DNA of 64,000 bases from Vicinamibacteria bacterium (GCA_036556965.1 DATBIO010000241.1:160-64159), one strand, 5' to 3'; shown: positions 7,212 through 53,293, counted from the stretch's first letter. The notes: generated by a model from the letters alone, not told the origin. Numbers and translations are program-made.

Positions 7212-11651
<4,440 letters not shown>

Positions 11652-12169: not shown

Positions 12170-12190
12170 AAACCTCCCAAGTCGTTGCGC

Positions 12191-12235
12191 TCCAACATAT
12201 GGGCTGCTAAGATGAATGGCCACAACATGTTGCGG
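12191..12235. promoter_or_regulatory. candidate NrdR operator upstream of nrdJ: two palindromic boxes about 30 bp apart
   Basis: Perfect palindrome CAACATGTTG inside ccACAACATGTTGcgg (12220-12235) matches 11/16 positions of the NrdR-box consensus acaCwAtATaTwGtgt as I recall it. A weaker CATATG-centred element lies about 3 helical turns upstream. The region is AT-richer than the flanking DNA. Confidence 0.3.
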
Positions 12236-12242
12236 TTTCTCC

Positions 12243-12271
12243 TTGACAGGCCCGTGACGCAGGTTTACAGT
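12243..12271 (+). promoter_or_regulatory. sigma-70-like promoter for nrdJ (TTGACA-N17-TACAGT)
   Basis: TTGACA followed 17 nt later by TACAGT, about 55 nt upstream of the nrdJ ATG. Confidence 0.35.
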
Positions 12272-12324
12272 CCGGCCCAATTCACCGGCCGACAGTCGTG
12301 ACCATCGAGAACCCGGAGGCACCC

Positions 12325-35302: not shown

Positions 35303-35333
35303 TTGCGGTCCGGTACGCGCCATCGCCTATAAT
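35303..35333 (+). promoter_or_regulatory. perfect TATAAT -10 box about 27 nt upstream of the regulator gene, in a low-GC intergenic patch
   Basis: gcctATAATtcgg at about 35328-35333. A weak TTGCGG sits 19 nt upstream. Confidence 0.3.
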
Positions 35334-35359
35334 TCGGCGGATTCTGTAAGGCGGTTGCC

Positions 35360-36031
35360 ATGCTCGAACGACAGCTGTCGGAACTGACCCAACTGCTCCT
35401 GGCGGACGACCCGAAGCGCGGAGCGCAGCGCGCGCTGCAGGTCCTGGCCATGCGCAACAACGCGCGCGTGGCCGCGCTCTTCACCGTCGCCAGCGGGGAC
35501 CAGCAGCGGCTGCGCCTGTTCGCCTCGGAGGCGCTCGACCAGGCCGCGCTCGACGTCGCGACGCAGCTCTTCGCCGCCCATCGCCGGGCCCTGGCCGCGG
35601 GCGAGCCGGCGCGCAGCGGAGGCGCGGTACCCCACGAGCTGCAGGCGGTCATGCTGCCCGTGCGCGACGAGGACGACGACATGGTGGGCCTGGTCTACCT
35701 CGACAGCGCGGACCCGCGCTTCCCGGAGGCCATCGACCTCGACGGCGTGCGGCGCTTCTCGGGCGTGCTGGCCGCCGCCCTCGCCGGCAACACGGAGCGT
35801 CCCGCCCCCGTGGCCCCCACCAACCCCGAGAGCTATCTGGAGCTCACCGCGCCCCACGAGGTGCGGCGGCACCAGCTCCTGCTCCTGCTCGAGCGGCACG
35901 AGTGGAACGTGGCCCGGGTGGCGCGCGCCATGGGCTGCGCGCGCATGACCATCTACTCCTGGCTCGCGCGCTACGGCATCGAGCGCCGGCGCATCCGGAA
36001 GACCAAGCCGAGGATCGCGCCCGCGGACTGA
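35360..36031 (+). CDS. transcriptional regulator: N-terminal GAF-like sensor domain + C-terminal Fis-type HTH
   Basis: The C-terminus WNVARVARAMGCARMTIYSWLARYGI is a Fis/NtrC-type HTH_8. No sigma-54 AAA+ domain. Confidence 0.6.
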   Translation: MLERQLSELTQLLLADDPKRGAQRALQVLAMRNNARVAALFTVASGDQQRLRLFASEALDQAALDVATQLFAAHRRALAAGEPARSGGAVPHELQAVMLPVRDEDDDMVGLVYLDSADPRFPEAIDLDGVRRFSGVLAAALAGNTERPAPVAPTNPESYLELTAPHEVRRHQLLLLLERHEWNVARVARAMGCARMTIYSWLARYGIERRRIRKTKPRIAPAD

Positions 36032-37995: not shown

Positions 37996-38008
37996 CCGGG
38001 CGGGGCCC

Positions 38009-38590
38009 CTAGCCCAGGCCGTTGTGCTTCTTGCGGATCAGCGACAGGAACTCCTCGCGCGTCTGCTGCTGGTCGCGGAACGCTCCCTTCATGCACGACG
38101 TGATGGCGACGGAGTTCTGCTTCTCCACCCCGCGCATGATCATGCACAGGTGCATGGCCTCGATGACCACGCCCACGCCACGCGGCCCGAGCGTGTCCTG
38201 GATGGCCTCGGCGACCTGAACGGTCAGGCGCTCCTGCACCTGGAGGCGGCGCGCGAAGGCGTCCACCAGGCGCGGGATCTTGGACAGCCCCAGCACCTTG
38301 CCGTTGGGGATGTAGGCCACGTGGGCCTTGCCGAAGAAGGGCAGGAGGTGGTGCTCGCACAGCGAGAAGACGTCGATGTCCTTCACCACCACCATCTCGT
38401 CGTAGTCGACGGTGAAGAGCGCCTTGTTGAGCAGCTCGTCGACGTCCTGCGCGTAGCCCTGGGTCAGGAAGCGGAAGGCCTTGTCCACGCGCTCCGGCGT
38501 CTTGACCAGCCCCTCGCGGTCGGGGTCCTCGCCCACCCCCGCGAGGAGGGCCCGGATGTGCGGCCGCAGGTCGAAGGAGTCGCTCCCCAC
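38009..38590 (-). CDS. folE: GTP cyclohydrolase I
   Basis: [49 protein letters not shown] is the FolE active-site signature. GTG start 2 nt after the radical-SAM stop. Confidence 0.85.
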
Positions 38591-38592
38591 GC

Positions 38593-39717
38593 TCAGCCCC
38601 GCGCCGGAAGGGCCACCGCCTTCGGCCGCAGCTCCAGCCGCGTGGGCACCTTGGTCACCGCGCAGGAGCGGCAGATCGGCTCGCCGCCGGCCTCGTCGTC
38701 CCAGGTGCGGCGGCGGTGCGCCTCCCGCAGGCGCTCGAAGTTGGGGCTGGCCCAGGCCTCCTTGATGCTCTTCATCAGCGGGTAGCCGGGCAGGCGCACC
38801 ACCGGCCCCCCGTCGATCTCCAGCGTGAAGCCCTGGCAGCAGGGCATGGTGTGGCGCCCGTCCCAGGTCACCACCATGCGGCGGAAGGGATCCGGGCACT
38901 GGAACTCGGAGGCGTCCATCTGCCGCCAGTGCGCGGCCTTCCAGTGGTGCTCGGTGCCGGCGGGGAAGTAGCACTCGCTGATCGACATCCAGTCCACGCC
39001 GATCTTCCCGCGCCAGAACTCCTCCATGCGCCCGCTGTCCACCGCCTCCGCGTTCACGTGCGTGCGCACCACGGAGGCGCGGATGCGGCAGTCGGGCGCG
39101 CCCTTGCCCTCCGCGCGCGCGCGCACCGCCGAGCGCACGGAGTTCAGGAGGATCTCCCAGCTGCCGCCCACGCGCTGCTTGTGGTAGCTGTCGGGGTCGC
39201 AGGCGTCCACGGAGAACATCAGGTCCGTGATGCCCGCCTCCACCATGTGGGCGAACAGGTCGGGGTTCTTGCGCGCGCCCCCGTTGCCGTTGGTGTTCAT
39301 CATGATGTCGGGGAAGCCCAGGCCCGAGGCCTCGCGCACGAAGGACACGATGCGCGGGTGCAGGGAGGGCTCGCCGCGGTAGTTGAGCTTGAGCGAGCTG
39401 ACGCCGGCGTCCGCGCACTGCTGGAGGAGGCGCCCGTAGAGGACGGGGTCCATGTAGCCCCGCTGGTAGGTGTAGGCGTCGAAGCCCTGGGTGCGGATGT
39501 GCTCGTGCGTCCAGATCTGGCAGAAGCCCTGGGGGTCCTCCTCCGAGCTGCCGCAGCGCAGGTCGCACACCGCGACCGACTCGAGGTCCACGTGCACCGG
39601 GTGGTCGGCGGGGTCGAGAAGGGCCTCGCGCCGGTCCCACTCGCGGCGGTACTCGTCGTAGCGCTGGGAGCGGCTGGGGAGGCTCCCGAGGACGCGGAAG
39701 GTCGGGTCTTTGCTCAT
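38593..39717 (-). CDS. radical SAM protein with C-terminal SPASM-like cysteine cluster
   Basis: An AGGAG SD precedes the ATG at about 39717. Radical-SAM core blocks [11 protein letters not shown] (GGE-like) and MMNTNGNG. Cys-rich N-terminus [20 protein letters not shown]-terminal CPDP...MPCCQGF...ICRSCAV. The first 106 codons of the ORF are junk. Confidence 0.75.
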
Positions 39718-39823
39718 CGCTCCTGCTTCACCAAACCGCGAGTGTAGCAAGGCGGTGCGGCCGGCCGGTAGCCGGTGGGCCCCTCCTCGGCGGGTGCTAT
39801 GATGCCGGGGCCCGCAGGGCTGC

Positions 39824-41950
39824 ATGGACCAACCCGACCGGCTCGGTAAGTACCAGATCATCTCCAAGATCGGCCAGGGGGCCATGGGCGAGGTGTTCAA
39901 GGCCCTCGACCCCTTCTTCAACCGCCACGTCGCCATCAAGACCATGCCCTCCGGCCTGGAGGACGACGAGCTGCGCAAGCGGTTCGTGCGCGAGGCCCAG
40001 TCCGCGGCCGTGCTCAGCCACCCCAACATCGTCACCGTCTACGACTTCGGCGAGGAGCAGGGCCGCATCTTCATGGCCATGGAGCTGCTCGACGGCCAGG
40101 ACCTCAAGGACGCCATCGCGCGCGGGGTGGCCCTGAGCCTCGAGCAGAAGATCACCATCATGGAGGAGATCGCGGAAGGGCTGGCCTTCGCCCACTCCCG
40201 CGCCATCGTCCACCGCGACCTCAAGCCCGCCAACATCCACCTCCTGCCCAACGGCACGGTGAAGATCATGGACTTCGGGCTGGCCCGCCTGGCCTCCTCG
40301 GACATGACGCGGGTGGGCACCGTGATGGGCACGCCCAACTACATGTCGCCGGAGCAGGTCCAGGGGGAGAAGGCGGACGTGCGGTCGGACGTCTTCTCCC
40401 TGGGCGCCGTGTTCTACGAGCTGCTCTCGGGCAAGAAGCCGTTCGAGGCCCCCTCCCTGCACGCCATCCTCTTCCAGGTCATGCAGAAGGAGCCGGAGCC
40501 GCTGGAGACGATCAAGCCCGAGCTGCCCGCGGCCGTCTGCGACATCGTGGTGAAGGCCCTGTCCAAGGACCCGAACCGCCGCTACCAGGACGCGGGCGAG
40601 CTGCGCGACGCCATCCACGAGGTGCGCACGTTCCTGTTCCCCAAGGACCGGGGGCGGCTGGGATCGGGGCCGTTGCGCCGTCCCACCGACACCGGGGCCC
40701 ATTCGCGGGCGGCCGCCATCGCCGCCGCCTCCACGCCGCCTCCGCCCGTGTCGGTGTCGCCGGCGGGCCGCGTGGAGGGAGCGGTGGCGCTGGCCCCGGA
40801 CCCGGCGGCGCCCGGCTCCACGCTCAAGCCGCAGAACCCCCCCACGCTCTCCGGCTTCTCGCAGACGCAGGTGGGCATCGGCGCGGAGCAGGCGGGGCGC
40901 AGGCGCCTCGCGCTGTACGCCGGGGGGGCGCTCGTGGCCGCCGCCGTGGCGGGCGCCACCTGGCTGTCCATGCGCGAGCAGGCCGCGCCGCCGGCGCCGG
41001 AGGTGACCGCGCCCGCCGCCGCCGTCCCCGCCCCTCCCGCCGTGGACCAGCGCGCCGCCTGGCTCGCCGCGGCGCAGCAGGCCCTGCGGGAGCGGAGGTA
41101 CGCGGAGGGGGTGTCGGAGGCGGAGAAGGTGCTGGCGGTGGACCCCGCCAACGTGGCCGCCACCGACGTGGCCCGCCTGGCGCGCCAGGGCCTCGCCGAC
41201 GTGGAGCGGGCGGTGGCGGACGTGCGCCGCGCCCTCGCCTCCGGCGACACGCGCGCGGCCTCGCGCGGCCTGTCGCGCCTTCTCGCCCTGGACCCCGAAA
41301 ACGCGGCGGTGGCCGAGTTCACGGCCCGCCTGAACAGCAGCTTCCGCACCGAGGCCCAGCAGGCGCGCGCGGCGTCGCAGCGGGCGGAGAAGGCGGCGCG
41401 GGACGCCGCCGCCGGCGCCCTGCCCGAGTTCGGCGCCGCCGCCACCGCGGCCGCCGACGCAGACGCCCTCTTCAAGCGCGAGGAGTACGCGGCGGCGGCG
41501 CGCCGCTACGGAGCGGCGGCGGAGGGATTCGCCCGCGCGCGCGCATCCGCGGAGAGCGCGGCGGCGGCCGCCGCGGCCGCCGCGGCCGCGGCCGCGGCCG
41601 CGACGCTGCCGCCGGCCCCCGCGCCCACCCCCGCGGCCGACCCGCGCTCCGCCGACGACGCCGCCATCCGTGCGGTGGTGGCCACCTACGCGCAGGCGCT
41701 GAAGACGCGCGACCTCGCGCTCTTCAAGAGCGTGAAGCCCGGCGTCACCGGCGCCGAGGAGCGCGCGCTGCGCCGCTCCGAGGCGGAGGACGTGGGCGTG
41801 AGCGTCGCGTCCATCGGCTTCAGCGGCGACCGCGCCCGGGTGCGCGTGACCCGCCGTGAGGTCAAGGACGGCAAGACCTCCCAGTCCCAGCAGACCCTGC
41901 TCCTCGTGAAGCAGGGCGCGAGCTGGGTGATCCAGCAGATCACCCGCTAG
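39824..41950 (+). CDS. Hanks-type Ser/Thr protein kinase with a C-terminal helical/poly-Ala region and a SnoaL/NTF2-like (DUF4440) domain
   Basis: Kinase subdomains GQGAMGEVFKA, VAIK, HRDLKPANI, DFGLA and GTPNYMSPE. A 17-residue Ala run. The C-terminus AIRAVVATYAQALKTRDLALFKSV...WVIQQI is NTF2-like. Confidence 0.9.
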   Translation: MDQPDRLGKYQIISKIGQGAMGEVFKALDPFFNRHVAIKTMPSGLEDDELRKRFVREAQSAAVLSHPNIVTVYDFGEEQGRIFMAMELLDGQDLKDAIARGVALSLEQKITIMEEIAEGLAFAHSRAIVHRDLKPANIHLLPNGTVKIMDFGLARLASSDMTRVGTVMGTPNYMSPEQVQGEKADVRSDVFSLGAVFYELLSGKKPFEAPSLHAILFQVMQKEPEPLETIKPELPAAVCDIVVKALSKDPNRRYQDAGELRDAIHEVRTFLFPKDRGRLGSGPLRRPTDTGAHSRAAAIAAASTPPPPVSVSPAGRVEGAVALAPDPAAPGSTLKPQNPPTLSGFSQTQVGIGAEQAGRRRLALYAGGALVAAAVAGATWLSMREQAAPPAPEVTAPAAAVPAPPAVDQRAAWLAAAQQALRERRYAEGVSEAEKVLAVDPANVAATDVARLARQGLADVERAVADVRRALASGDTRAASRGLSRLLALDPENAAVAEFTARLNSSFRTEAQQARAASQRAEKAARDAAAGALPEFGAAATAAADADALFKREEYAAAARRYGAAAEGFARARASAESAAAAAAAAAAAAAAATLPPAPAPTPAADPRSADDAAIRAVVATYAQALKTRDLALFKSVKPGVTGAEERALRRSEAEDVGVSVASIGFSGDRARVRVTRREVKDGKTSQSQQTLLLVKQGASWVIQQITR
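41557..41602 (+). repeat. GC-only (GCS)n trinucleotide repeat encoding poly-Ala inside the kinase gene
   Basis: About 15 consecutive GCG/GCC codons. Confidence 0.5.
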
Positions 41951-42073
41951 ACCGGGCCCACCGCCGAGCGCGGCAGCGGGGGAGTCTCCGCCTCCCGGCC
42001 TGTCGTGCGGCGGCTTCCGCTCCTCCGGACCTCGTGCGGCCCCTCCTTCGCGGATCCTCCACTCGTTCACCCC

Positions 42074-44503
42074 GTGAGTGGTCCCACGTTGAGCCAGCCC
42101 CTGGTCCTGCGCCGCGACGAGGCGCTCTCTCCCGAGCGCGGCCTCCTGGCCGTCCTCAAGGCCTTCGAGATCGAGAAGACGCTCGGCGAGGAGCCGGTGC
42201 TCGCCGCCCTCCGCCGCTTCCCGCCCGAGCCCGCGCAGCACGCGGACTTCCCGGAGGAGCTCCACCCGCGCCTGCGCGCGGCCCTCCGTGCGCGCGGCGT
42301 GGAGCGGCTCTACACGCACCAGCGCGAGGCCTACGACGCCGCGCGGCGCGGCGAGAACGTGGTGGTGGTGACGCCCACGGCCTCCGGCAAGACGCTCTGC
42401 TACACGCTGCCCGTCCTCGATCGCATCCTGGGCGAACCGGACGCGCGCGCCCTCTTCCTCTTTCCGACCAAGGCCCTCTCCCAGGACCAGCTGGCGGGCC
42501 TGCACGCCACGGTGGAGGAGCTGGGGGCGGACATCGGCACCTTCACCTACGACGGCGACACCCCCCAGGACGCGCGCAAGGCCATCCGCGCGCGCGCCCA
42601 CGTGGTCATCACCAACCCGGACATGCTCCACAAGGGCGTGCTGCCCCACCACACGAAGTGGGCGAGGCTCTTCGAGAACCTGCGCTACGTGGTGGTGGAC
42701 GAGCTGCACGGCTACCGCGGCGTCTACGGCTCGCACGTGGCCAACGTCTTCCGCCGCCTCCACCGCCTGTGCCGCTTCTACGGCTCCGCCCCCCAGTTCC
42801 TCTGCTCGTCCGCCACCATCGGCAACCCGCGCGAGCTGGCCGAGGCCCTGACCGGCCGCCCCATGCGCCTCGTCGACCGCAGCGGCGCCCCCCGCGGCGA
42901 GCGGTTCTTCGCCCTCTACAACCCGCCGGTGGTGAACCGCCAGCTCGGCATCCGGCGCTCCGCCCTCAACTGCGCGCGCGACGTGGCCCTCTCCTTCCTG
43001 GGCAAGGGTCTGCAGACCATCGTCTTCGCCCCCTCGCGCCTGTCCACCGAGGTGCTGGTCAGCTACCTGAAGGAGGCCCTCGAGCGCCGGCCCGGCGCGG
43101 AGGGCGTCATCCGCGGCTACCGCGGCGGCTACCTGCCGCTGAAACGGCGCGAGATCGAGCGCGGGCTGCGCGACGGCAGCGTGCTGGGGGTGGTCTCCAC
43201 CAACGCCCTCGAGCTGGGCGTGGACATCGGCAGCCTGGACGCCGCGGTGCTGCTCGGCTACCCGGGCAGCGTGGCCTCCACCTGGCAGCAGGCGGGGCGT
43301 GCCGGCCGCCGCCAGGGGGCCTCCGCCGCCGTGCTGGTGGCGAACTCGACCCCCCTGAACCAGTTCCTCGCGCGCAACCCCGAGTACTTCTTCGACGCGC
43401 CCGTCGAGCAGGGCCGGCTCAACGCCGACAACCTGCAGATCCTCCTGAGCCACGTCAAGTGCGCGGCTTTCGAGCTGCCCTTCGCCGACGACGAGCACGC
43501 GCTCTACGGCACGCGCGAGGACCTGGGCGAGGTGCTGCGTTTCCTGGAGGAGGAGCGGCTCCTGCACCGCTCGGGCGGGCGCTGGCACTGGACCTCCGAG
43601 AGCTATCCCGCGGACGCGGTCAGCCTGCGCAGCGTCTCCTCCGACAACTTCGTGGTGCAGGACGTGACCTCCGACCCGTGCGTGGTGGCGGAGGTGGACT
43701 TCGACAGCGCGCCCTCCACCCTGCACGAGAAGGCCGTCTACATCCTGGAGGGCCGCACCTACTTCGTGGAGCGCTACGACCACGAGCAGCGGCGCGCCCA
43801 CGTGCGCGAGGCGGAGGTGGACTACTACACCGACGCCATCACCCACTCCAAGGTGCGCATCCTGGAGACCTTCGACGAGCGGCCCGCGCGCGCCGCGCGG
43901 CGCAGCCACGGCGAGGTGCACGTCTCCTCGCAGGTGGTGGGCTTCAAGAAGATCAAGTTCCACACGGGCGAGAACGTGGGCGCGGGCGAGCTGCAGATGC
44001 CGGAGAGCCAGATGCACACCACCGCCTACTGGCTGACGGTGCCGCGCGCGGTCATGGCCGCCCTGCCCTACGGGAGCGAGGATCGGCGCGACGGCGTGGT
44101 CGCCCTCGCGCACGCGCTGGGCCAGCTGGCCGCCCTCTTCCTGATGTGCGACCGGCGCGACCTGGGCCTGGCCCTGGGCGAGGGCGGCACCGCCCAGCAC
44201 GCGGCGCGCCCCTCGCGCGGGCCCGGCGGCCCCGGCGACCGCTCCCTCTCCCTCGAATACGAGCCGCAGGTCTTCCTCTACGACGGCTACCCGGGCGGCA
44301 TCGGCCTCTCCGAGCCGCTCTTCCGGCTGCACGAGCGGCTGCTGGGCGAGAGCCGCGCGCTGATCGCCGCCTGTCCCTGCGCGGAGGGCTGCCCGTCGTG
44401 CGTGGGCCCCCCGGGCGAGGTCGGCCGCCGGGGCAAGGAGGTGGCCCTGGCCCTGCTCGACCGGCTGCACGGGCCGGCCCTCGAGGAGGCGGCGCCGGAG
44501 TGA
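42074..44503 (+). CDS. DEAD/DEAH-box helicase with C-terminal DUF1998 four-Cys domain (MrfA/YprA-like)
   Basis: Motif I TPTASGKT. DEAH-like VVVDELHGYRG. Helicase C block. The C-terminal DUF1998 CPCAEGCPSCVGPP. Exact start uncertain (GTG about 42074 or ORF start 42005). Confidence 0.85.
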   Translation: MSGPTLSQPLVLRRDEALSPERGLLAVLKAFEIEKTLGEEPVLAALRRFPPEPAQHADFPEELHPRLRAALRARGVERLYTHQREAYDAARRGENVVVVTPTASGKTLCYTLPVLDRILGEPDARALFLFPTKALSQDQLAGLHATVEELGADIGTFTYDGDTPQDARKAIRARAHVVITNPDMLHKGVLPHHTKWARLFENLRYVVVDELHGYRGVYGSHVANVFRRLHRLCRFYGSAPQFLCSSATIGNPRELAEALTGRPMRLVDRSGAPRGERFFALYNPPVVNRQLGIRRSALNCARDVALSFLGKGLQTIVFAPSRLSTEVLVSYLKEALERRPGAEGVIRGYRGGYLPLKRREIERGLRDGSVLGVVSTNALELGVDIGSLDAAVLLGYPGSVASTWQQAGRAGRRQGASAAVLVANSTPLNQFLARNPEYFFDAPVEQGRLNADNLQILLSHVKCAAFELPFADDEHALYGTREDLGEVLRFLEEERLLHRSGGRWHWTSESYPADAVSLRSVSSDNFVVQDVTSDPCVVAEVDFDSAPSTLHEKAVYILEGRTYFVERYDHEQRRAHVREAEVDYYTDAITHSKVRILETFDERPARAARRSHGEVHVSSQVVGFKKIKFHTGENVGAGELQMPESQMHTTAYWLTVPRAVMAALPYGSEDRRDGVVALAHALGQLAALFLMCDRRDLGLALGEGGTAQHAARPSRGPGGPGDRSLSLEYEPQVFLYDGYPGGIGLSEPLFRLHERLLGESRALIAACPCAEGCPSCVGPPGEVGRRGKEVALALLDRLHGPALEEAAPE

Positions 44504-45396
44504 AGGCGCGCCTCCTGCCCGCCCTGGCCGCCCTCGCCCTGGGCGCCGCCGCCTCCGGCGCCCCCGCGCGGCCGCCGGTGCGGGCGGTGGTGCTCGGCAT
44601 CGCGCAGGACGGCGGCGTGCCCCACATCGGCTGCGGCCAGGAGCTGTGCCGGCGCGCGCGGCGCTATCCCGCGCACGGCGAGCGCGTGGCCGCCCTCGGC
44701 CTCGTCGACGAGGCGGCGGGGAAGCGGTTCCTGGTGGAGGCCACCCCCGACCTGCCCGCGCAGGCCGACGCGCTGGGCGGACTCGACGGCATCCTGGTCA
44801 CCCACGCCCACATCGGCCACTACACCGGGCTCATGTACCTCGGCCGCGAGGCGCGGGGCGCCCGTGACGTGCCGGTGTGGGCCACCCCGCGCATGGCCGC
44901 CTTCCTGCGCGCCAACGCGCCCTGGAGCCAGCTGGTGGCCCTGGGCAACCTCTCCCTGCGCGAGGTCGAGCCCGGCCGCGAGGTCGTGCTCTCGCCCGGC
45001 CTGCGCGTGACCGCGCTGCGCGTGCCCCACCGCGACGAGCTGAGCGACACGGTGGCCTTCCGCGTCCGCGGGCCGTCCCGCGCCCTGCTCTTCCTGCCCG
45101 ACGTGGACAAGTGGGAGACGTGGGACCGCCGACTGGAGGACGAGGTGGCGGCGGTGGACCACGCGCTCCTGGACGGCACCTTCTTCGCCGCGGACGAGAT
45201 CCCCGGCCGCTCCCAGGCCGACATCCCGCACCCGCTGGTGCCGGAGACGATGGCCCTCCTGGGGGGGGGCCGCGGGCGCGTGCTCTTCATCCACCTCAAC
45301 CACACCAACCGCCTGCTCTGGGACGCGACCGCCCGCCGCTCTCTCGTGCGGCGCGGCTTCGGGGTCGCGCGCGAGGGCCAGGAGATCGCGCTCTGA
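44500..45396 (+). CDS. MBL-fold metallo-hydrolase with predicted Sec signal peptide (PqqB-like)
   Basis: GTG overlaps the helicase stop (GTGA). Signal-like VKARLLPALAALALGAAASGAPA. Metal-binding HAHIGHYTG (HxHxDH-type) and later His/Asp ligands. Confidence 0.7.
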   Translation: MKARLLPALAALALGAAASGAPARPPVRAVVLGIAQDGGVPHIGCGQELCRRARRYPAHGERVAALGLVDEAAGKRFLVEATPDLPAQADALGGLDGILVTHAHIGHYTGLMYLGREARGARDVPVWATPRMAAFLRANAPWSQLVALGNLSLREVEPGREVVLSPGLRVTALRVPHRDELSDTVAFRVRGPSRALLFLPDVDKWETWDRRLEDEVAAVDHALLDGTFFAADEIPGRSQADIPHPLVPETMALLGGGRGRVLFIHLNHTNRLLWDATARRSLVRRGFGVAREGQEIAL

Positions 45397-46724
45397 GCAG
45401 CGCCACCTGGGACCGGCTGCAGCGGCTGCGCCGGCCGGGCCCGCCGCCCGAGCTGCCGCGGCTGGAGGAGTCGCTCCTGGGCAGCCGTCACGACGAGCTT
45501 CCCCTGAAGGAGCGCCTGCAGCGGTTGATGGCGGCGGCGGGGGCGAGCCGCGCGCGGCCCCCGGCCGCCGTGCGCCAGCCGCGGCTGGAGGAGCTGCTGC
45601 AGGGTCGCCGCGCGGAGAACCCGCGCGGCGAGTTCTTCGTGGTGGAGCAGGACCTGCCCGCGGACACGCTGCACGGTGACGTCAGCCTGAGCCGCTTCGG
45701 CGTGCTGTCGCCCTCGACGGTGGCCGTGCTCTCGGGCGAGGCCGCCCTGGGCGCCTTCGACCTGAGGCGCGCGGTCTTCCTCGACACCGAGACCACGGGG
45801 CTGGCGGGGGGCACGGGCACCGCCGCCTTCCTGGTGGGCCTGGGCTGGCTCGAGGGCGGCCGCTTCCGCGTGCGCCAGTACCTCATGCGCGACTACCACG
45901 AGGAGGCGGCGCTGCTGCACGCGCTGGCCGCCGACCTGCATCGGTTCTGTCACCTCGTCACCTTCAACGGCCGCACCTTCGACCTCCCCCTGCTGGAGGC
46001 GCGCTTCCGCCTCAACCGCGAGCCGTGGCCGCTCGCCTCCTGCCTGCACCTCGACCTGCTCCCGCCGGCGCGGCGCTTGTGGCGCGCCCGCCTCATGTCT
46101 TGCCGCCTGCAGTCGCTGGAGACCGACCTCCTGCGCCTGCGCCGGCACGGCGACGTGGGGGGGGAGGAGATCCCGCGCATCTACTTCGACTTCGTGCGCC
46201 GCCGGGACGGGCGCGCGCTGGTCAAGGTGCTCGACCACAACCGCCTGGACGTGGTCTCGCTGGCTGCCCTCTCCATCCTGGCCTGCCAGTGGGTGGACGG
46301 GGGCTGGGCGGAGGACCCGCTGGACGTGTACTGCCTGGCCCGCGTCTACGAGCGCGCGCGCCTGTTCGAGCGCTCGGACGCCGAGTACCGCCGCGCGGCC
46401 GACGGGCCCAGCCCCGTGCGCGTGCCCGCGCTGCTGCGCCTGGCCGCGCGCGCGCGGCGCCGCGGCGACCACGCCGAGGCGGCGCGCCTGTGGGAGCACG
46501 CCGCGGACGAGGGCGACTGGCGCGCCCTGCGCGCCCTGGCCATCCACCACGAGCGGCGCGGGCGCAACCCGCTCTCCGCGCTGCGCGCGGTGGAGCGCGC
46601 CCTGGAGCGGCTGTGGGAAGAGGGCCGCCCGCCGGCGGGGAAGGCGGCGGTGGAGCTGCTGCAGCGCCGCGCGCGCCTGCGCGCCCGCATGGTGGAGCCG
46701 GGGCCGGGCGGCCGCGCCTCCTGA
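45393..46724 (+). CDS. DnaQ/DEDD-type 3'-5' exonuclease domain + TPR-like helical C-terminus (MrfB/YprB-like)
   Basis: Exo I motif AVFLDTETTGL. Later HNRLDVVSL (Exo III-like H/D). Helical repeats at the C-terminus. No ATG or GTG in frame near the 5' end, so a CTG overlapping the MBL stop (CTGA) or an internal start may be used. Confidence 0.65.
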   Translation: MSSATWDRLQRLRRPGPPPELPRLEESLLGSRHDELPLKERLQRLMAAAGASRARPPAAVRQPRLEELLQGRRAENPRGEFFVVEQDLPADTLHGDVSLSRFGVLSPSTVAVLSGEAALGAFDLRRAVFLDTETTGLAGGTGTAAFLVGLGWLEGGRFRVRQYLMRDYHEEAALLHALAADLHRFCHLVTFNGRTFDLPLLEARFRLNREPWPLASCLHLDLLPPARRLWRARLMSCRLQSLETDLLRLRRHGDVGGEEIPRIYFDFVRRRDGRALVKVLDHNRLDVVSLAALSILACQWVDGGWAEDPLDVYCLARVYERARLFERSDAEYRRAADGPSPVRVPALLRLAARARRRGDHAEAARLWEHAADEGDWRALRALAIHHERRGRNPLSALRAVERALERLWEEGRPPAGKAAVELLQRRARLRARMVEPGPGGRAS

Positions 46725-46761
46725 CAAGCCCCCCTCGGAACGGGGTAGACTCGCGCGCTTG

Positions 46762-49383
46762 ATGTCCGCCCCGGACGAATCCCCTACGGACGCGCCCGGC
46801 GCGAGCCGCGTGCGGCGGCGCGCCGCCGACGCCCTCGGCCTCCTCCTCGTCTACGCCCTGCTGCTGGGCACGGTGCCGCCCTCGCTCCTCCTGCTGCCCA
46901 CCATCACCGCGGGCGGCGACACGCCGTGCCATTACCCCACCGCGGCCTGGTTCGTGGAGCGGCTGCTCCCGCGCCTGCGGCTGCAGGGCTGGTATCCGGG
47001 GGCCTACCTCGGCCAGCCGCTGCTCCTCTACTACTTCCCGCTCCCGTTCCTGGCCATGGCCGCGCTCGCCCCCGTCTTCGGCCTGCCCGCGGCCTTCAAG
47101 CTCGGCGCCTTCGGCGGTCCCTTCCTCCTGCCCCTCCTCGCCTACGCCGCGTTCCGCCTGATGCGGTTCCGCTTCCCGGCGCCCCTGCTCGCCGCCGCCG
47201 CCGGCGCCGTCTTCCTGTTCGTCGAGGAGAACCCCATCTGGGGCGGCACCCTGGCCAGCGCCTTCACCGGCGAGTTCGCGTACGGGTGGGGCATCGGCCT
47301 GGCCGTGCTCTTCCTCGGCGTCGTGTACCGCGCCTACGCCACCGGCGCGAGCCCGGTCCTGCCCGCCGCGCTGCTGGCCCTGGTGGCCCTGGCCCACGGC
47401 TACGCCGTGCTCTGGGCGGGCCTGTCCGCCGCCTACTTCCTCTACGGCGCGCGCCGGCCGCTGCGCACCCTGGGCTGGCTCCTCGCCATCGCCGGGCTCG
47501 CGCTGTGCCTGGCCGGGTTCTGGCTGCTGCCTTTGCTCGGCGACTGGGGCTGGACCACGCCCTACGACGACCCCTGGATCACGGTGACCTGGCGCGGCCT
47601 GGTCCCTCCGCTGCTCTGGCCGCTGTTCGCGGCCGCCCTGCTGGCCCTGGCCGGCTCCGCCCTGCTCGCGCGCAGGGCGCGCGGGCACGACCAGCGCGTC
47701 CTCTTCATCGCCCACGCCGCCCTGGTGGCGGCCGCCCTCGCCGCGGCCGCGCCCGCCGCCGGCGTCATCGACGTCCGCTTCGTGCCCTTCGCCCATCTCG
47801 CGCTGGCCCTCGCGGGCGCCGCCTTCCTCGGCCTGCTCTTCGCCCGCCTGCGCCTTTCGGACGTGGCCGCGGTGGGGGCGGTGATGCTGGCCCTCGCCTG
47901 GTCCGACGCGCACTCCAAGGTCCTGCGCTTCTGGGCGGACTACAACCTGGGCGGCCTGGAGGCCAAGGAGCTGTGGCCGGCCTGGTCGGAGCTGAGCCAG
48001 TGGCTGCACGGGACGGCGGCCGACCCGCGGGTGGCGGTGGAGTACTCCACGGAGCACGAGAAGGCCGGCTCCATCCGCGTCTACGAGACCCTGCCCTTCT
48101 TCTCGGGCCGCTCCACCCTGGAGGGCGTCTACAACCAGGCCAGCGTGGTCACCCACCCCGTCTACTACCTGGCCTCCGAGCTGGGCGCCTCCTCGCCCAA
48201 CCCGTTCCGCCGCCGCGAGTACTCGCGCTTCGACACCGACGCCGCGCTCGGCCACCTCGAGCTCTTCAACGCCGACACCGTGGTCGCGCTCAGCCCCGCG
48301 CTGGTGGCCGCCCTCGACGGACACCCCGCCGCCCGCCGCGAGCGCGAGATCCCGCCCTACGTGGTCTTCCGCCTGCACCAGCGCACGGGCTACGCGGAGC
48401 CCCTGGCCTTCGCCCCCGTGCGCAGCCCGCGCGCGGGCTGGCGCGACAAGTCGTACCGCTGGTTCACGCGCAAGGAGCGCGGGCAGCCCCACCTCGTCTT
48501 CACCGACGACCCCCGCTTCGAGACGGTGGAGGCGGACGAGTGGCTGCCCCCGCCGCGCGTTTCCCTGGCCGCGGGGACCGAGGTGGAGTCCGTGGTGGAG
48601 GACGAGCGCATCACGCTCCGCACCAGCAGGGTGGGCCACCCGGTGCTGGTCAAGGTGGCGTACCACCCGCGCTGGCGCGCGGAGGGGGCCGACGGCCCCT
48701 ACCTCGTGGCGCCGGGCCTGATGATGGTGGTGCCCACCGCCTTCGAGGTGCGCCTCACCTACGGCCGCCGCGCCAGCGACGTCCTCGGCCTCGCCCTCAC
48801 CCTGTCGAGCCTGGCCGGCCTGGCGGCCCTGGCCGTCTGGAGGCGCCGACGCCGCGCGGAGCAGCCGCCCGCGGCCGCCCCCGTCATCCCCGCGGACGCC
48901 TGCGAGGTGCCCACGCCGCCGCGGCGCTGGGGAGCGGCCGTGCCCACCACCCTGCTCGTGGCCCTGGCGGCGGCGCGCTTCGTGCCGCAGGGGGAGGCGT
49001 CGGCCGACGCGGGCGACCTCTACGACCGCGCCTCGCGCGCCTACGCCGAGGCGCGCTGGGCCGACGCCGCCGAGTACGCGCGCCACGCGCTGTTCCCGGC
49101 CCGGGACATGGCCCTCCACGCCTCGCTGCTCAGCCTGCGCGGGGAGAGCCTGCTGCGCGCCGCGCGCCCGCGCGAGGCCCTGCTCTCGTTCCAGGACGTG
49201 CTGGGCGAGCCGTCCTCGCCCTACCGCGCGCAGGCCCTCTTCGGCGCGGCGGAGGCCCAGTCCGCGCTGGGCGACGAGGCGGGGGCCCGCGAGTCGCGCG
49301 CGCGCCTGCTCAAGGAGTTCCCGGAGTCGCCGTGGGCCACGCGCGTGCAGGCCACGCCCGCCGCCGCCACCGCCGTCCGCTAG
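46762..49383 (+). CDS. large polytopic membrane protein with a soluble middle domain and a C-terminal TPR-like region (possible GT-C-fold glycosyltransferase)
   Basis: More than 10 N-terminal TM helices, another TM helix near residue 690, and a TPR-like C-terminus. No confident family assignment. Confidence 0.6.
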   Translation: MSAPDESPTDAPGASRVRRRAADALGLLLVYALLLGTVPPSLLLLPTITAGGDTPCHYPTAAWFVERLLPRLRLQGWYPGAYLGQPLLLYYFPLPFLAMAALAPVFGLPAAFKLGAFGGPFLLPLLAYAAFRLMRFRFPAPLLAAAAGAVFLFVEENPIWGGTLASAFTGEFAYGWGIGLAVLFLGVVYRAYATGASPVLPAALLALVALAHGYAVLWAGLSAAYFLYGARRPLRTLGWLLAIAGLALCLAGFWLLPLLGDWGWTTPYDDPWITVTWRGLVPPLLWPLFAAALLALAGSALLARRARGHDQRVLFIAHAALVAAALAAAAPAAGVIDVRFVPFAHLALALAGAAFLGLLFARLRLSDVAAVGAVMLALAWSDAHSKVLRFWADYNLGGLEAKELWPAWSELSQWLHGTAADPRVAVEYSTEHEKAGSIRVYETLPFFSGRSTLEGVYNQASVVTHPVYYLASELGASSPNPFRRREYSRFDTDAALGHLELFNADTVVALSPALVAALDGHPAARREREIPPYVVFRLHQRTGYAEPLAFAPVRSPRAGWRDKSYRWFTRKERGQPHLVFTDDPRFETVEADEWLPPPRVSLAAGTEVESVVEDERITLRTSRVGHPVLVKVAYHPRWRAEGADGPYLVAPGLMMVVPTAFEVRLTYGRRASDVLGLALTLSSLAGLAALAVWRRRRRAEQPPAAAPVIPADACEVPTPPRRWGAAVPTTLLVALAAARFVPQGEASADAGDLYDRASRAYAEARWADAAEYARHALFPARDMALHASLLSLRGESLLRAARPREALLSFQDVLGEPSSPYRAQALFGAAEAQSALGDEAGARESRARLLKEFPESPWATRVQATPAAATAVR

Positions 49384-49393
49384 CCCGAAGGCC

Positions 49394-49660
49394 CTAGGTC
49401 CGGGGCCGCGGGGCCAGGCCCATCCCGATCAGCCGCTCGCGCAGCACCTCGGGGGATATGCGATGGCGCGCCACCTCGCGCTCGTCCACGGTGAGGACGG
49501 GGATGTCGAGGCCGTAGCGGGCGAGCAGGGCGGGGTCGCCGGTGACGTCCACCGTGCGGAGCGAGAGCCCGAACTCCGGCAGCACGGCCTCCGCCACCGC
49601 CTGCATGACGTGGCACAGGTGGCAGTCGGCCTTGCCCAGCAGGCGCGCGGCCGCGCTCAG
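49394..49660 (-). CDS. glutaredoxin-like small thioredoxin-fold protein (DUF836 type)
   Basis: LLGKADCHLCHVMQAV...VDVTGDPALLARYGLDIPVLTV. The only in-frame start is a CTG overlapping the FTR1 stop (CTGA). Confidence 0.5.
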   Translation of the reverse strand: MSAAARLLGKADCHLCHVMQAVAEAVLPEFGLSLRTVDVTGDPALLARYGLDIPVLTVDEREVARHRISPEVLRERLIGMGLAPRPRT

Positions 49661-51573
49661 CTCCGGTCCTTGCCCGCGGGCTCGGGCGCGGTCCGCCGCA
49701 GCGAGAGCAGCGCGCCGGAGACCACCACGGCCACGATGGCGAGCTGGACGAGGAGGCCGCTGAGGTCCGGGTGGATGCCCAGCCAGGGCACCTCGGGGAA
49801 CGTCACCGGCCGCGGCGACAGGTAGCCCGCCGCCACCAGGGCGTAGATCCCGGAGCCGGCGAAGACGATGGCCAGCCCGCAGAGCAGGGCGCCGGAGACG
49901 GCGAAGAGCGGCCGCAGGGGCAGGCGCCCCAGCGTGCCCTTGAGGAGGACGGCCGCCGCCACCACGGCCAGGAGGCCCGCGGCCGCGCCCAGGTACACCT
50001 GGCCGCGGTGCCCCTCGCTCTCCAGGAGCAGGGCCTGCGTGAAGAGCACGGTCTCCGCCGCCTCGCGGTACACCGCGAGGAAGGAGAGCCCGGCCAGCAT
50101 GAGCAGGTTGCGCCCGCTCAGCGCGTCGACCTGCCGGCGCAGGTACTGCATCCAGCGGCGGGCCTCCACCCGCGAGATGAGCCAGAAGCTCACGGAGAAG
50201 AGCACGGTGGCGGCGGCCAGCGAGACCAGGCCCTCCAGCAGCTCGCGCCGCTGCGCGCCCAGGGCCACCACCCGGTCGGCCGCCCACCAGGTGAGGGCGC
50301 CCGCGGGGAGGGCCAGCACCCACCCCGCGTGCAGCCAGCGCGCGGCATGCGCGCGCCCCGTGCGGCGCACGCCGGCCAGCAGCGCGCCCACCAGCAGCGC
50401 GGCCTCGATGCCCTCGCGGAAGTAGATGACGAAGGCGGCCAGCATGGGCACCACCGCGCGCCGCTCGCCCCCGATGCCGCGCAGGCGGTCCTGGAGCGCG
50501 GCCGCCGTCAGCTCCACGCCGTCGCGGTCGTCGCGGGCCAGGGCCGCGCGCACCTCGCGGAAGAGCGACTCGACCTCCGCCGTGCCCGCGGGGTCGCGCC
50601 CGCGGAGGCGCGGCTCGAGGGGCTCGAAGCCGGAGAGGTAGGCGTCGAGCACGAGGCGGTCGGCATCCCCCGTCCGTCCCTCGCGGTAGCTCCGCACGCC
50701 CTGGGCCACGAGCCGCCGCGTCTGGTCGAGGCCCGCTCCCGCCGGCACCTCGCGGAAGGCGCTCTCGCGGCGGGCGTAGACGAGGGCGGCCTGGGCGTCG
50801 GGATGGGCCTCCGCGCGCAGGGCCTCGAGCACCTGCGCGTCGGAGCGGGTGGCCAGGTCGCCCAGGGTCATGGCCACCGGGCCCTTCCCGGGCGTGCCCT
50901 CGTGGCCGAGGCGGAACACGTAGAAGGCCAGGCTCCAGCGGTCCTCCGCGCTCAGCGGGGAGAAGGACGCCATGGCCGTGCCGGGCACGCCGAAGGTCAG
51001 CGCGTTGTAGACGCGGTAGGGCGAGAGGTCGCGCAGGCGCTCGGCGTCGCGGAAGCTGGCGGGCGGGGGATCGAGGGTGGCCGCGCGCTCGGTCCGCGCG
51101 TCGCCGCGCGCGCCGTGGCAGGCGGCGCACGCCTCCGCGTAGAGGGCCTCCGCGCGCGCGAGGGAGGGCCGCACCACCGGCGTGGTGGGGAGCGAGAAGC
51201 GCGCCACCAGCATGTCGCGCCCGGCGCGGCAGGCCTCCGCCACCGCCTCCGGGGGGGCCTTGGCCAGGACGCGCGTCTCCACCTCGGCCAGGGCCGCGCG
51301 CACGGCGTCGTCGGCGGGGGAGGGGGCGAGCAGCGCGCCGGCCAGCCGGCGCGCGTCGGCGGCGAAGACGCGCTGCTCCTGGTACTCGGGTTCGCTGATC
51401 ACGGCCCCGTCGCGCACGGCCAGCACGTAGTCGCCCCCGATGTAGTCGAGGAGGGCCACCGCGCGCTGGGCGTCGCCCCCGTCGGGGGCCGCGGGCGCGC
51501 TCGCGCGCGGCCCCGCGCAGCCCGCCACGGCCAGGGCCAGCGCCGCCACCGCGAAATTGAAAATGAATTTCAT
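49657..51573 (-). CDS. cytochrome c - FTR1 family high-affinity iron permease fusion, lipoprotein signal
   Basis: Signal MKFIFNFAVAALALAVAGC. Heme motif CAACHG. FTR1 REGIEAALL (RExxE) motifs in the TM region. The upstream 111 codons of the ORF are junk. Confidence 0.85.
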   Translation of the reverse strand: MKFIFNFAVAALALAVAGCAGPRASAPAAPDGGDAQRAVALLDYIGGDYVLAVRDGAVISEPEYQEQRVFAADARRLAGALLAPSPADDAVRAALAEVETRVLAKAPPEAVAEACRAGRDMLVARFSLPTTPVVRPSLARAEALYAEACAACHGARGDARTERAATLDPPPASFRDAERLRDLSPYRVYNALTFGVPGTAMASFSPLSAEDRWSLAFYVFRLGHEGTPGKGPVAMTLGDLATRSDAQVLEALRAEAHPDAQAALVYARRESAFREVPAGAGLDQTRRLVAQGVRSYREGRTGDADRLVLDAYLSGFEPLEPRLRGRDPAGTAEVESLFREVRAALARDDRDGVELTAAALQDRLRGIGGERRAVVPMLAAFVIYFREGIEAALLVGALLAGVRRTGRAHAARWLHAGWVLALPAGALTWWAADRVVALGAQRRELLEGLVSLAAATVLFSVSFWLISRVEARRWMQYLRRQVDALSGRNLLMLAGLSFLAVYREAAETVLFTQALLLESEGHRGQVYLGAAAGLLAVVAAAVLLKGTLGRLPLRPLFAVSGALLCGLAIVFAGSGIYALVAAGYLSPRPVTFPEVPWLGIHPDLSGLLVQLAIVAVVVSGALLSLRRTAPEPAGKDRS

Positions 51574-51577
51574 TTTC
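51559..51577 (-). promoter_or_regulatory. Fur-box-like 19-bp AT-rich palindrome overlapping the iron-permease start codon
   Basis: GAAAATGAATTTCATTTTC is 18/19 self-complementary and matches 14/19 of the GATAATGATAATCATTATC Fur-box consensus. A TTGACC-N18-TACGCT promoter-like element lies immediately upstream. Confidence 0.4.
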
Positions 51578-51611
51578 GGGCGGCGAGCGTAGCAGACCTC
51601 CAGGGCGGGGG

Positions 51612-52322
51612 TCAACGGAGGGCGGCCTCCATGGCGGCCACGATGGCCACGGCGGCGGAGGCGGGGTCGGGGGCGGACAGCACGGGCCGGCCCACCACCA
51701 GGTAGTCGGCGCCCGCGGCCAGGGCGACGCCGGGGACGGCGTGGCGCGCCTGGTCGCCCTTGGGGGCGCCCGCGGGCCGGATGCCGGGGGTCACGATCAG
51801 GAAGCCGGGGCCGCAGGCCTCGCGGACCACGGCCGCCTCCCGGGGCGAGGCCACCGCGCCGTCGGCCCCCGCCTCCCGCGCGAGCAGGGCGAGGCGGCGC
51901 ACGCACTCCTCGACCGTGCCCGCGACGCCCAGGCGCGCGAGGCCGGCCTGGTCGTGGCTGGTGAGCACGGTGATGGCGAGGACGCGGGGGCGGCGCTCGC
52001 CCGCGCGGCGCGCGGCCTCCACCGCGGCCTGGAGCATCTCCGGGCCGCCCAGGGCGTGCACGGTGAGGAGGCTGACGCCGAGGGCGCTCGCCGCCTCCAC
52101 CGCGGAGGCCACGGTGTTGGGGATGTCGTGGAACTTGAGGTCGAGGAAGACGGGCCAGCCGTCGCCGGCCAGCTCGCGCACGAGCGACGGCCCCTCGGCG
52201 GTGAAGAGCTGGCTCCCGACCTTCATCTGGCCCGCGTGCCCGCGCAGGCGCGCGGCCATGCGCCGGGCCTCCTCCGCGCCGGGGAGGTCGAGGGCGACGA
52301 TCAGGCGGTCGCGGGCGGTCAC
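51612..52322 (-). CDS. pyrF: orotidine-5'-phosphate decarboxylase
   Basis: LIVALDLP, FLDLKFHDIPNTV and LLTVHALGG. GTG overlaps the pyrD stop (GTGA). Confidence 0.85.
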   Translation of the reverse strand: MTARDRLIVALDLPGAEEARRMAARLRGHAGQMKVGSQLFTAEGPSLVRELAGDGWPVFLDLKFHDIPNTVASAVEAASALGVSLLTVHALGGPEMLQAAVEAARRAGERRPRVLAITVLTSHDQAGLARLGVAGTVEECVRRLALLAREAGADGAVASPREAAVVREACGPGFLIVTPGIRPAGAPKGDQARHAVPGVALAAGADYLVVGRPVLSAPDPASAAVAIVAAMEAALR

Positions 52323-53293
52323 CCCTCGCTGCCGGCTTCCGGCCGCTGGTGGCCGGGGTACTGGAGCGTGCCCACCACCTCGTTCACGTCGCGCAGGCCG
52401 TGGCGGCCGAGATAGGCCTCGAGCCCGCCCAGGATGCGGCCGTACACGCCGGGGTCCACGAAGTTGGCGGTGCCGATCTGCACGGCGCGGCAGCCCGCGA
52501 TGAGGAACTCCAGCGTGTCCTCGGCGGAGGAGATGCCGCCGATGCCGATGACGGGGATGCGCACGGCGCGCGCGGCCTGCCAGGCCATGCGCAGGGCCAC
52601 GGGCCGGATGGCGGGGCCGGAGAGCCCCCCCGTGCCGAAGGCCAGGCGCGGGCGGCGGCGCTCCACGTCCACGCTCATGCCCAGCAGGGTGTTGATGCAG
52701 GAGAGGGCGTCGGCGCCGGCCTCCGCGCAGGTGCGCGCGAAGAGCGCGATGTCGCCCACGTTGGGGGAGAGCTTGGGGACGACGGGCAGGCGCGTGGCCG
52801 CGCGCACCGCCGACACCACCAGGCGCGTCATGGCGGGGTCGCCGCCGAAGGCCATGCCGCCCTTCTCCACGTTGGGGCAGGAGATGTTGATCTCGAGGGC
52901 GTCCACGCCGGGGGCGCCGTCCAGGATGCGCGCCACCTCCGCGTACTCCTCGGCGGTGTCGCCGCAGACGTTCACGATGACGGCGGTGTCGTAGCGGCCG
53001 AGCTGGGGGAGCACGTCGCGCACGAAGGCGCGCACGCCGATGCCCTGGAGGCCGATGGCGTTGAGGAGGCCGGAGGGCGTCTCCACGATGCGCGGGACGT
53101 CGCAGCCCTCGCGCGGCTCGAGGTACAGCCCCTTGGTGGCGATGCCCCCCAGCGTGTTCAGGTCCACGATCCCCGCGCACTCCAGGCCGTAGCCGAAGGT
53201 GCCGGAGGCGGCGATGAGCGGGTTCTTGAGGCGCAGGCCGGCGATCTCCACGGCCAGGCTCACCCCGGCGGTGGGGGACACGGTGGAGGTCAT
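52319..53293 (-). CDS. pyrD: dihydroorotate dehydrogenase catalytic subunit (class 1B)
   Basis: NPLIAASGTFGYG, EINISCPNV and IPVIGIGGISSAEDTLEFLIAG. Confidence 0.9.
   Translation of the reverse strand: MTSTVSPTAGVSLAVEIAGLRLKNPLIAASGTFGYGLECAGIVDLNTLGGIATKGLYLEPREGCDVPRIVETPSGLLNAIGLQGIGVRAFVRDVLPQLGRYDTAVIVNVCGDTAEEYAEVARILDGAPGVDALEINISCPNVEKGGMAFGGDPAMTRLVVSAVRAATRLPVVPKLSPNVGDIALFARTCAEAGADALSCINTLLGMSVDVERRRPRLAFGTGGLSGPAIRPVALRMAWQAARAVRIPVIGIGGISSAEDTLEFLIAGCRAVQIGTANFVDPGVYGRILGGLEAYLGRHGLRDVNEVVGTLQYPGHQRPEAGSEG

Follow-up and report, generated by a model that had tools for sequence, protein, structure and literature searches.

The subject of this analysis is a group of three genes in a Vicinamibacteria bacterium, which code for a superfamily 2 (SF2) DNA helicase, a metallo-beta-lactamase (MBL) fold protein and a DEDDh exonuclease. 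They lie on the + strand of GCA_036556965.1 DATBIO010000241.1:160-64159, a stretch of 64,000 nucleotides which we call the window, and all positions are counted from its first letter. G+C content is about 75% across the whole window, which makes stop-to-stop open reading frames (ORFs) unreliable, and the genes were placed by a frame plot of G+C at codon positions (GC3 for the third position, GC2 for the second) together with the translations. The order of genes on the + strand is Ser/Thr kinase, helicase, MBL, exonuclease and PTPS_related membrane protein. The following features belong to the three central genes; the evidence for each is given in brackets.

42074 (GTG)-44503, + strand: mrfA/yprA-type SF2 DExH DNA helicase, 809 aa (Pfam, match to 6ZNP, GC3 plot)
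44481-44487, + strand: GAGGAGG, resembling a Shine-Dalgarno sequence, within the 3′ end of the helicase gene and 12 nt ahead of GTG 44500, where the MBL gene starts (read from the sequence)
44500 (GTG)-45396, + strand: putatively exported PqqB/PhnP-like MBL-fold metalloprotein, 298 aa (Pfam, AlphaFold, invariant residues)
44500-44577, + strand: predicted signal peptide region of the MBL protein, its first 26 residues, MKAR / LLPALAALALGAAA / SGA... (family-wide leaders, low pLDDT)
45380-45384, + strand: AGGAG, resembling a Shine-Dalgarno sequence, 8 nt ahead of CTG 45393 (read from the sequence)
45393-45395, + strand: probable non-canonical CTG start of the exonuclease, overlapping the MBL stop (alignment with relatives, CTGA overlap)
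45393-46724, + strand: mrfB/yprB-type DEDDh 3′-5′ exonuclease, 443 aa from CTG or 398 aa from ATG 45528 (Pfam, profile match to 8UN9)

At the helicase/MBL junction the stop TGA 44501-44503 overlaps GTG 44500 (GTGA, 44500-44503), and at the MBL/exonuclease junction the stop TGA 45394-45396 overlaps CTG 45393 (CTGA, 45393-45396). A preliminary description of this DNA had chained three + strand genes by just these overlaps, and the GC3 plot and the translations confirm its coordinates and gene description.

Products of the three genes

The helicase includes the Pfam domains DEAD (7.3e-32), Helicase_C (8.6e-12), WHD_HRQ1 (PF22982, 1.4e-11) and MZB (identical with DUF1998, PF09369, 2e-18). It matches the Bacillus subtilis YprA/MrfA structure, PDB 6ZNP, with 809 bits (E 4.9e-242, query 47-798 to chain 25-750). 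The DELH motif aligns with the DELH of B. subtilis, and CPCAEGCPSC of the four-cysteine zinc cluster aligns with CPCHDGCPSC of 6ZNP. The start at GTG 42074 agrees with the relatives, which align from residue 1-8. Judged by these alignments, the first gene is a full-length orthologue of B. subtilis MrfA/YprA. In the published phylogeny of the YprA family, MrfB-linked helicases form a repair and housekeeping branch apart from the defence branches (10.1101/2025.09.15.676423). We also compared the protein with TIGR03817, a DEAH helicase model of the helicase/secretion neighbourhood, where it scored 662 bits against a trusted cut-off of 874. Membership was rejected for this reason; the protein belongs to a related clade and not to that hypothetical equivalog.

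The exonuclease has the RNase_H_2 domain (PF13482, the YprB family domain) at 1.2e-37, and the crystal structure of MrfB (8UN9) is matched with E 2.4e-45 by a profile of this protein together with 19 homologues. The DEDDh residues D131, E133, D197, H282 and D286, aligned to 8UN9, are invariant in the family. Its AlphaFold model (pLDDT 87) begins with N-terminal helices 3-12, 21-29 and 38-52, continues with the RNase H-like core and ends in eight stacked helices at residues 309-434. This tail was unmatched by Pfam TPR (tetratricopeptide repeat) models at E<=0.01, and the family profile weakly matches a designed TPR (CTPR) protein (1.6e-5). The two identities first proposed from the sequence, an MrfA/YprA-like DUF1998 helicase and an MrfB/YprB-like DEDD exonuclease with a helical tail, are thus borne out, the former by the DEAD, Helicase_C and MZB domains and the full-length 6ZNP match, the latter by RNase_H_2, the 8UN9 match, the intact DEDDh residues and the repeats of the model. 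On this comparison of sequences and folds, the helicase and the exonuclease are assigned to MrfAB.

The MBL protein belongs to Lactamase_B_2 (3.5e-24). Its AlphaFold model has pLDDT 86, and the best PDB folds are PqqB (TM 0.73-0.75, 23-25% identity), followed by the PhnP family, Apyc1 and RNase Z. At the position of the superfamily motif HxHxDH the protein has H102-A-H104-I-G106-H107 (HAHIGH), with the glycine invariant in 20 of 20 sequences. The intact HxHxDH of PhnP-type binuclear phosphodiesterases was therefore not found in it, as Gly replaces Asp. Residues H42, C45 and C50 are invariant in the family alignment, and this cluster resembles the structural Zn site of PqqB and PhnP. The activity is most likely that of a metal-dependent hydrolase of (phospho)esterase type, less likely that of a PqqB-like oxygenase.

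The N-terminus of this protein, MKARLLPALAALALGAAASGAPARP, is laid out like a Sec signal, with n, h and c regions in order. In the model residues 1-20 have pLDDT 52-55 and lie outside the folded domain, whose first strand begins at residue 27. Leaders were scored by a hydropathy/lipobox heuristic in 94 MBL homologues; because G+C-rich DNA can mimic Ala/Leu-rich extensions, these were taken from genomes that range from 30 to 72% G+C. In 84 of the 94, the domain follows a hydrophobic leader (63 with an h-region, at least 21 with a lipobox such as LLFSC or LFIGC, the latter mostly from Bacteroidota, Planctomycetota and Marinimicrobia), and most of the copies embedded in mrfAB retain it. Export is therefore a property of the MBL family, and the window protein would likewise be exported to the periplasm or envelope. 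The Sec signal peptide suspected earlier is in this way supported by its layout, by its place outside the fold and by the family. Two points weigh on the other side: the leader was judged by a heuristic, and an in-frame GTG at 44578 coincides exactly with the first strand of the domain, so that a protein started there would have no leader and could in principle be cytoplasmic.

Start codon of the exonuclease gene

The exonuclease gene had been described as lacking an in-frame ATG or GTG near its 5′ end. This is correct, and TTG is missing too: the frame has none of the three codons between the MBL stop and TTG 45525 / ATG 45528, 44-45 codons downstream. Members of the family have 440-460 aa and begin with M/V/L-S-S-x-L-x-D-R-L-R-R-L-R-R. 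Of 69 related loci, 68 have ATG, GTG or TTG at a distance of 4-9 codons ahead of the conserved DRLRRLRR motif; in the window no such codon stands there. Instead, when the window protein (LSSATWDRLQRL) is aligned with its closest homologue, P0122 (MSSATWQRLQRL), CTG 45393 falls opposite the ATG of P0122.

The 45 codons before ATG 45528 have coding composition, with GC3 0.96 (0.98 in the rest of the gene) and GC2 0.51, and they keep ten residues invariant in the family: L9, L12, L21, L24, E25, L38, R41, L42, R44 and L45. Contig L001 (Logan SRR35940786), which was assembled independently, perhaps from the same sample, has an identical CTGA junction, and in locus L091, with an exonuclease of 66% identity, the overlap likewise reads CTGA and AGGAG stands at the same distance from CTG. 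An assembly error peculiar to the window is unlikely because of the identical junction in L001, and a sequencing or assembly error at the CTG was rejected as unlikely for this reason and for the CTG in L091. Orthologues with a four-nucleotide overlap use all four NTGA variants: ATGA, GTGA, TTGA and CTGA (compared in loci L082-L098, L154, L155, L160, L161, L002 and L091, and at window positions 45393-45396). This suggests that the first base of the start codon may be relaxed at the coupled NTGA junction.

In B. subtilis the N-terminus of MrfB is predicted to wrap the winged-helix domain of MrfA and to dock a helix on it (PMC11194089), so the longer exonuclease product is the functional form to expect. 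The N-terminal helical region is encoded and conserved in the window, and it is translated only if CTG 45393 is used. Translation of the exonuclease most likely begins at this codon, to judge from the alignment and the conserved residues. Initiation there would be Shine-Dalgarno-assisted or would proceed by termination and reinitiation at the CTGA overlap, giving a low level of full-length MrfB with its conserved N-terminal helices.

Several facts speak against a CTG start. In E. coli reporters CUG initiates at 1-2% of AUG (10.1101/063800). Expression of the full-length exonuclease is therefore probably low or dependent on coupling, and ATG 45528 could for the same reason be the main start. 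AAGGAG lies 15 nt upstream of ATG 45528, and the JGI gene call P0121 is a protein of 398 aa from this ATG. If these facts are put together with the missing canonical codon at the family start position, the gene can be seen as N-terminally truncated or decaying: a change from ATG to CTG would have disabled the start, leaving only the 398-aa product or none. In line with this, the B. subtilis MrfB core keeps its exonuclease activity when residues 1-32 are missing (PMC11194089). But the 45 upstream codons have not lost their coding composition or any of the invariant residues from L9 to L45, the AAGGAG before ATG 45528 is forced by conserved Lys-Glu codons, and the shared CTG and AGGAG spacing of L091, at 66% identity, argues for retention under selection. 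We consider truncation somewhat unlikely. With probable initiation at CTG 45393, and with all four NTGA variants among its orthologues, the locus lends itself as a natural system in which to test whether overlapping stop-start junctions allow initiation at CTG.

Synteny and probable origin of the embedded MBL gene

Synteny was surveyed from both partners. On the MBL side, a profile scan with one genome per species gave 80 loci, and the helicase and exonuclease flank the MBL gene in only two of them, L002 and L017, both from Vicinamibacteria; in the other 78 it lies away from mrfAB. ORF clustering over the same 80 loci found no conserved neighbour of the MBL family beyond small lineage-specific groups. 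On the exonuclease side we compared 80 metagenome loci with exonucleases 54-69% identical, of which 68 show the upstream gene. The gene directly upstream is the helicase in 46 loci, MBL in 20 and another gene in 2, and the full order helicase-MBL-exonuclease is visible in 11 of the 20 MBL-upstream loci. The order helicase, MBL, exonuclease, PTPS_related recurs in GCA_973786855.1 (L162), the closest relative among genomes. Three-gene synteny thus holds in one sub-clade, about 30% of the close relatives, and fails elsewhere, the pair without MBL being found in 46 of the 68 loci. The refutation proposed with the preliminary description, no cleavable signal and no three-gene synteny in relatives, comes out split: the signal peptide is upheld, and the synteny is confined to this sub-clade.

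In the neighbor-joining (NJ) tree all embedded MBLs group together in a single clade, with the free acidobacterial MBLs as its sister group, and in the exonuclease NJ tree MBL-bearing and MBL-less loci interleave. Two MBL-less loci, L108 and L110, are nested in an MBL-bearing clade and have about 90% DNA identity to the MBL-bearing L109 on both flanks. Of the MBL ORF they keep only ~10 nt from the beginning and ~15 nt from the end, which form a mini-ORF of 13 codons (MSRGPVIPLENSP and a stop; L108 ~3215-3260, corresponding to L109 6985-7930), with stop-start coupling preserved. This is most simply read as a clean and precise deletion of the MBL gene. Outside L108 and L110, the helicase-exonuclease gaps of MBL-less loci contained no significant MBL remnants. 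In L017 two further genes lie between helicase and MBL: a RibD_C/dihydrofolate-reductase-like gene (8147-8683, - strand) and a membrane fatty-acid-desaturase-like gene with His boxes (8830-9864, + strand). The mrfA-mrfB junction seems, from these arrangements, to accumulate insertions.

The two surveys, the trees, the L108/L110 deletion and the L017 insertions speak for one event, in which a gene that had stood alone and coded for an exported enzyme entered the mrfA-mrfB junction. This would have happened once, in an ancestor of the sub-clade and exactly at the junction, followed by vertical inheritance in tight translational coupling with the genes on either side and by secondary loss from some lineages. 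Loss happened at least once, as seen directly in L108/L110, and probably more often, given the interleaved tree.

Two points weigh against this reading. The NJ trees are unbootstrapped, and the junctions are tight: the gap between MBL and exonuclease is <=6 nt in 21 of 22 embedded loci, and the genes overlap in 15. The embedded order is old and well kept, and L162 has it too; this could be due to selection for joint expression instead of neutral evolution. On account of the tight junctions, we keep the hypothesis of co-regulation. Its fullest form is an operon in which the exported MBL would meet a natural product that damages DNA, hypothetically a quinone/aziridine antibiotic of mitomycin type, in the periplasm and modify it or make it inactive there, while MrfAB repairs the residual adducts; co-transcription would then have been selected. 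Besides the junctions and the order in the nearest genome, this idea draws on the monophyly of the embedded MBL clade, kept through ~35% protein divergence, on PqqB as the closest fold, an enzyme acting on quinone precursors, and on the specificity of B. subtilis MrfAB for a natural antibiotic (10.1101/426304). It is opposed by the free MBL orthologues of 78 of the 80 genomes, unlinked to repair genes, by the clean loss in L108/L110, by the unrelated genes at the same junction in L017 and by the HAHIGH motif, which is unlike that of PqqB. We regard it as unlikely. A wider version, quite improbable in our view, would make mrfAB of one acidobacterial clade a detoxification and repair unit in which the dose of exonuclease is set by obligatory NTGA termination-reinitiation, even from CTG. 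If true, an exported PqqB-like enzyme would be co-expressed with the repair pair because it acts, outside the cytoplasm, on the kind of natural product whose DNA damage MrfAB repairs.

The preliminary description had also raised the possibility that the trio is a module for repair or defence whose composition has not been described before. We compared the locus with PADLOC models. For the helicase, the matches to BrxHI, DruE, DpdF/J and DrmA are confined to the SF2 core (residues ~60-440), with E from 1e-48 to 1e-10, and that to BrxHI covers positions 6-350 of 698. PADLOC gave no match for the MBL protein and only a marginal DEDDh match (0.008) for the exonuclease. The defence partners DrmB/C, DruA-D and a methyltransferase are not present at the locus, and the neighbouring genes in the window and in L162 are of housekeeping type and form no defence island. 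A defence module was rejected on the core-only PADLOC match as against the full-length 809-bit MrfA match, and on the housekeeping neighbours; the suggestion of such a trio is not supported, as MBL is unlinked in 78 of 80 loci, the canonical pair prevails in 46 of 68, the MBL gene has been cleanly deleted and PADLOC has no match for its product.

One variant of the suggestion is a cytoplasmic machine of three components, for repair or against phages, in which a leaderless MBL protein made from GTG 44578 would act as nuclease or phosphodiesterase with both partners. The relation of the MBL fold to the phosphodiesterases and nucleases RNase Z, PhnP and Apyc1 is in line with it, as are the occurrence of DUF1998 helicases in DISARM, Druantia and Dpd, the PADLOC matches to the SF2 core and the position of the in-frame GTG exactly at the first strand of the domain. 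But the leaders, lipoboxes included, are family-wide and retained in most embedded MBLs, the PADLOC matches leave out MBL and span only residues ~60-440 of the helicase, this helicase is an MrfA orthologue of the repair branch, the two-gene form predominates (46/68) and the surroundings are housekeeping genes instead of a defence island. Such a machine is very improbable. One candidate new defence or repair system can thus be removed from the list, and neighbourhoods of a DUF1998 helicase with a nuclease and a hydrolase need synteny tests from both partners before they are labelled a system.

Taken together, the locus is probably a canonical mrfAB (yprAB) repair operon of a high-GC Vicinamibacteria-like acidobacterium, with a co-transcribed passenger MBL gene and a CTG-started exonuclease gene. 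Its repair function is assigned by homology. MrfA, a 3′-5′ SF2 helicase with MZB, and MrfB, a Mg-dependent DEDDh 3′-5′ exonuclease with a TPR tail, would unwind and excise bulky adducts of mitomycin C type, acting jointly in the cytoplasm as expected by homology to B. subtilis. The MBL protein, if secreted to the periplasm or envelope, would therefore not act on DNA together with MrfA and MrfB, and its gene would be a co-transcribed passenger. Resistance to mitomycin C by MrfAB, independent of UvrABC, is known for B. subtilis only (10.1101/426304; PMC11194089).

Two genes on the same strand flank the operon.

39824-41950, + strand: Ser/Thr kinase, upstream of the helicase
~46762-49383, + strand: PTPS_related (PF10131) polytopic membrane protein with a C-terminal TPR/YbgF-like region (Pfam 1.3e-29)

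Among 50 related loci whose sequence reaches far enough, 47 have the PTPS_related gene 3′ of the exonuclease gene and co-oriented with it, and so does L162; the gene is probably co-transcribed with the exonuclease gene. The order mrfA-(MBL)-mrfB-PTPS_related is a conserved synteny in this lineage. A scan for promoters and terminators over 41500-49800 found no promoter and one terminator-like site inside the exonuclease ORF, which is chance level and uninformative. The kinase has a long Ala/Pro-rich C-terminal half that includes a run of 14 Ala. A homologous kinase adjoins mrfA in several relatives with varying orientation, on the same strand in L083 and L097 and on the opposite strand in L002, L108 and L109.

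Further away, positions 49660-52383 (- strand) code for a protein of 908 aa with a cytochrome c domain (~408-489) and an FTR1/EfeU iron-permease domain (645-888), and L162 has a shorter version of 643 aa at the same position. An ORF of 232 aa at 35333-36028 (+ strand) has only a weak C-terminal helix-turn-helix (HTH) match of the HTH_23/IS481-transposase type (23-30 bits), and is possibly a regulator or a transposase fragment. Local G+C falls to 0.68 at 12001-14000 and to 0.70 at 38001-40000, compared with ~0.75 elsewhere, and the second dip covers a radical SAM/SPASM gene (38596-40035, - strand).

Comparison with known systems

The helicases of the defence systems DISARM (DrmA/B), Druantia (DruE), Dpd (DpdJ/F) and BREX (BrxHI) have the SF2 core in common with the window helicase; the DUF1998 module is shared in part. 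They differ in that the match is limited to the core, and the MrfB-linked helicases lie in a separate repair branch (10.1101/2025.09.15.676423).

The MBL protein has its best sequence and fold match in PqqB (4Z7R, 4Z67, 6E13), with a profile E of 1.4e-22 and an end-to-end alignment at TM 0.73-0.75, and both proteins have the N-terminal Cys-rich structural metal motif. However, identity is only 23-25%, PqqB is cytoplasmic whereas the MBL protein has a predicted signal peptide, and HAHIGH stands against N-G-D-V-D-H of PqqB in the active site. The protein aligns with the whole PqqB equivalog model TIGR02108, but reaches 100 bits against a cut-off of 245. The genes pqqA, pqqC, pqqD and pqqE were not found among the neighbouring proteins scanned, over ~28-60 kb of the window, and the radical SAM/SPASM gene at 38596-40035, 4.5 kb upstream, had no match to PqqE. 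A real PqqB was rejected on the score, the missing pqq genes, the unmatched SPASM gene and the signal peptide.

In the JGI annotation thousands of metagenome members of this family (for example P0001-P0120) are labelled "pyrroloquinoline quinone biosynthesis protein B". Given the leaders, lipoboxes and lack of pqq context, this label is likely a systematic mis-annotation. What is defined here is a large family of PqqB-like MBL proteins with predicted export, present in Acidobacteriota, Bacteroidota, Planctomycetota, Marinimicrobia and other phyla.

The phosphodiesterases and diphosphatases of the PhnP family (3G1P, 6B9V) have the same Lactamase_B_2 fold class and are the second-best structural match, but in them the Asp of HxHxDH is not replaced by Gly. 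Secreted MBL phytases from a soil metagenome, Mblp01 and Mblp02, are PF12706 proteins of ~310-355 aa with signal peptides, one of them acidobacterial (PMC6584368). They share the Lactamase_B_2 class and the signal peptide with the MBL protein, a likeness drawn by description only and to be taken as a lead.

The closest known system is the MrfA-MrfB pair of B. subtilis. The helicase aligns with MrfA over its full length (809 bits), including DExH, the winged helix and the four-cysteine MZB. The exonuclease has the same RNase_H_2/DEDDh core as MrfB and a predicted helical-repeat tail, and its frame encodes a conserved N-terminal helical region; gene order, strand and translational coupling agree as well. 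The window differs from B. subtilis in three respects: a gene for a putatively exported MBL protein lies between the two genes, CTG is the probable start codon of the exonuclease, and the PTPS_related membrane-protein gene is kept downstream in this lineage.

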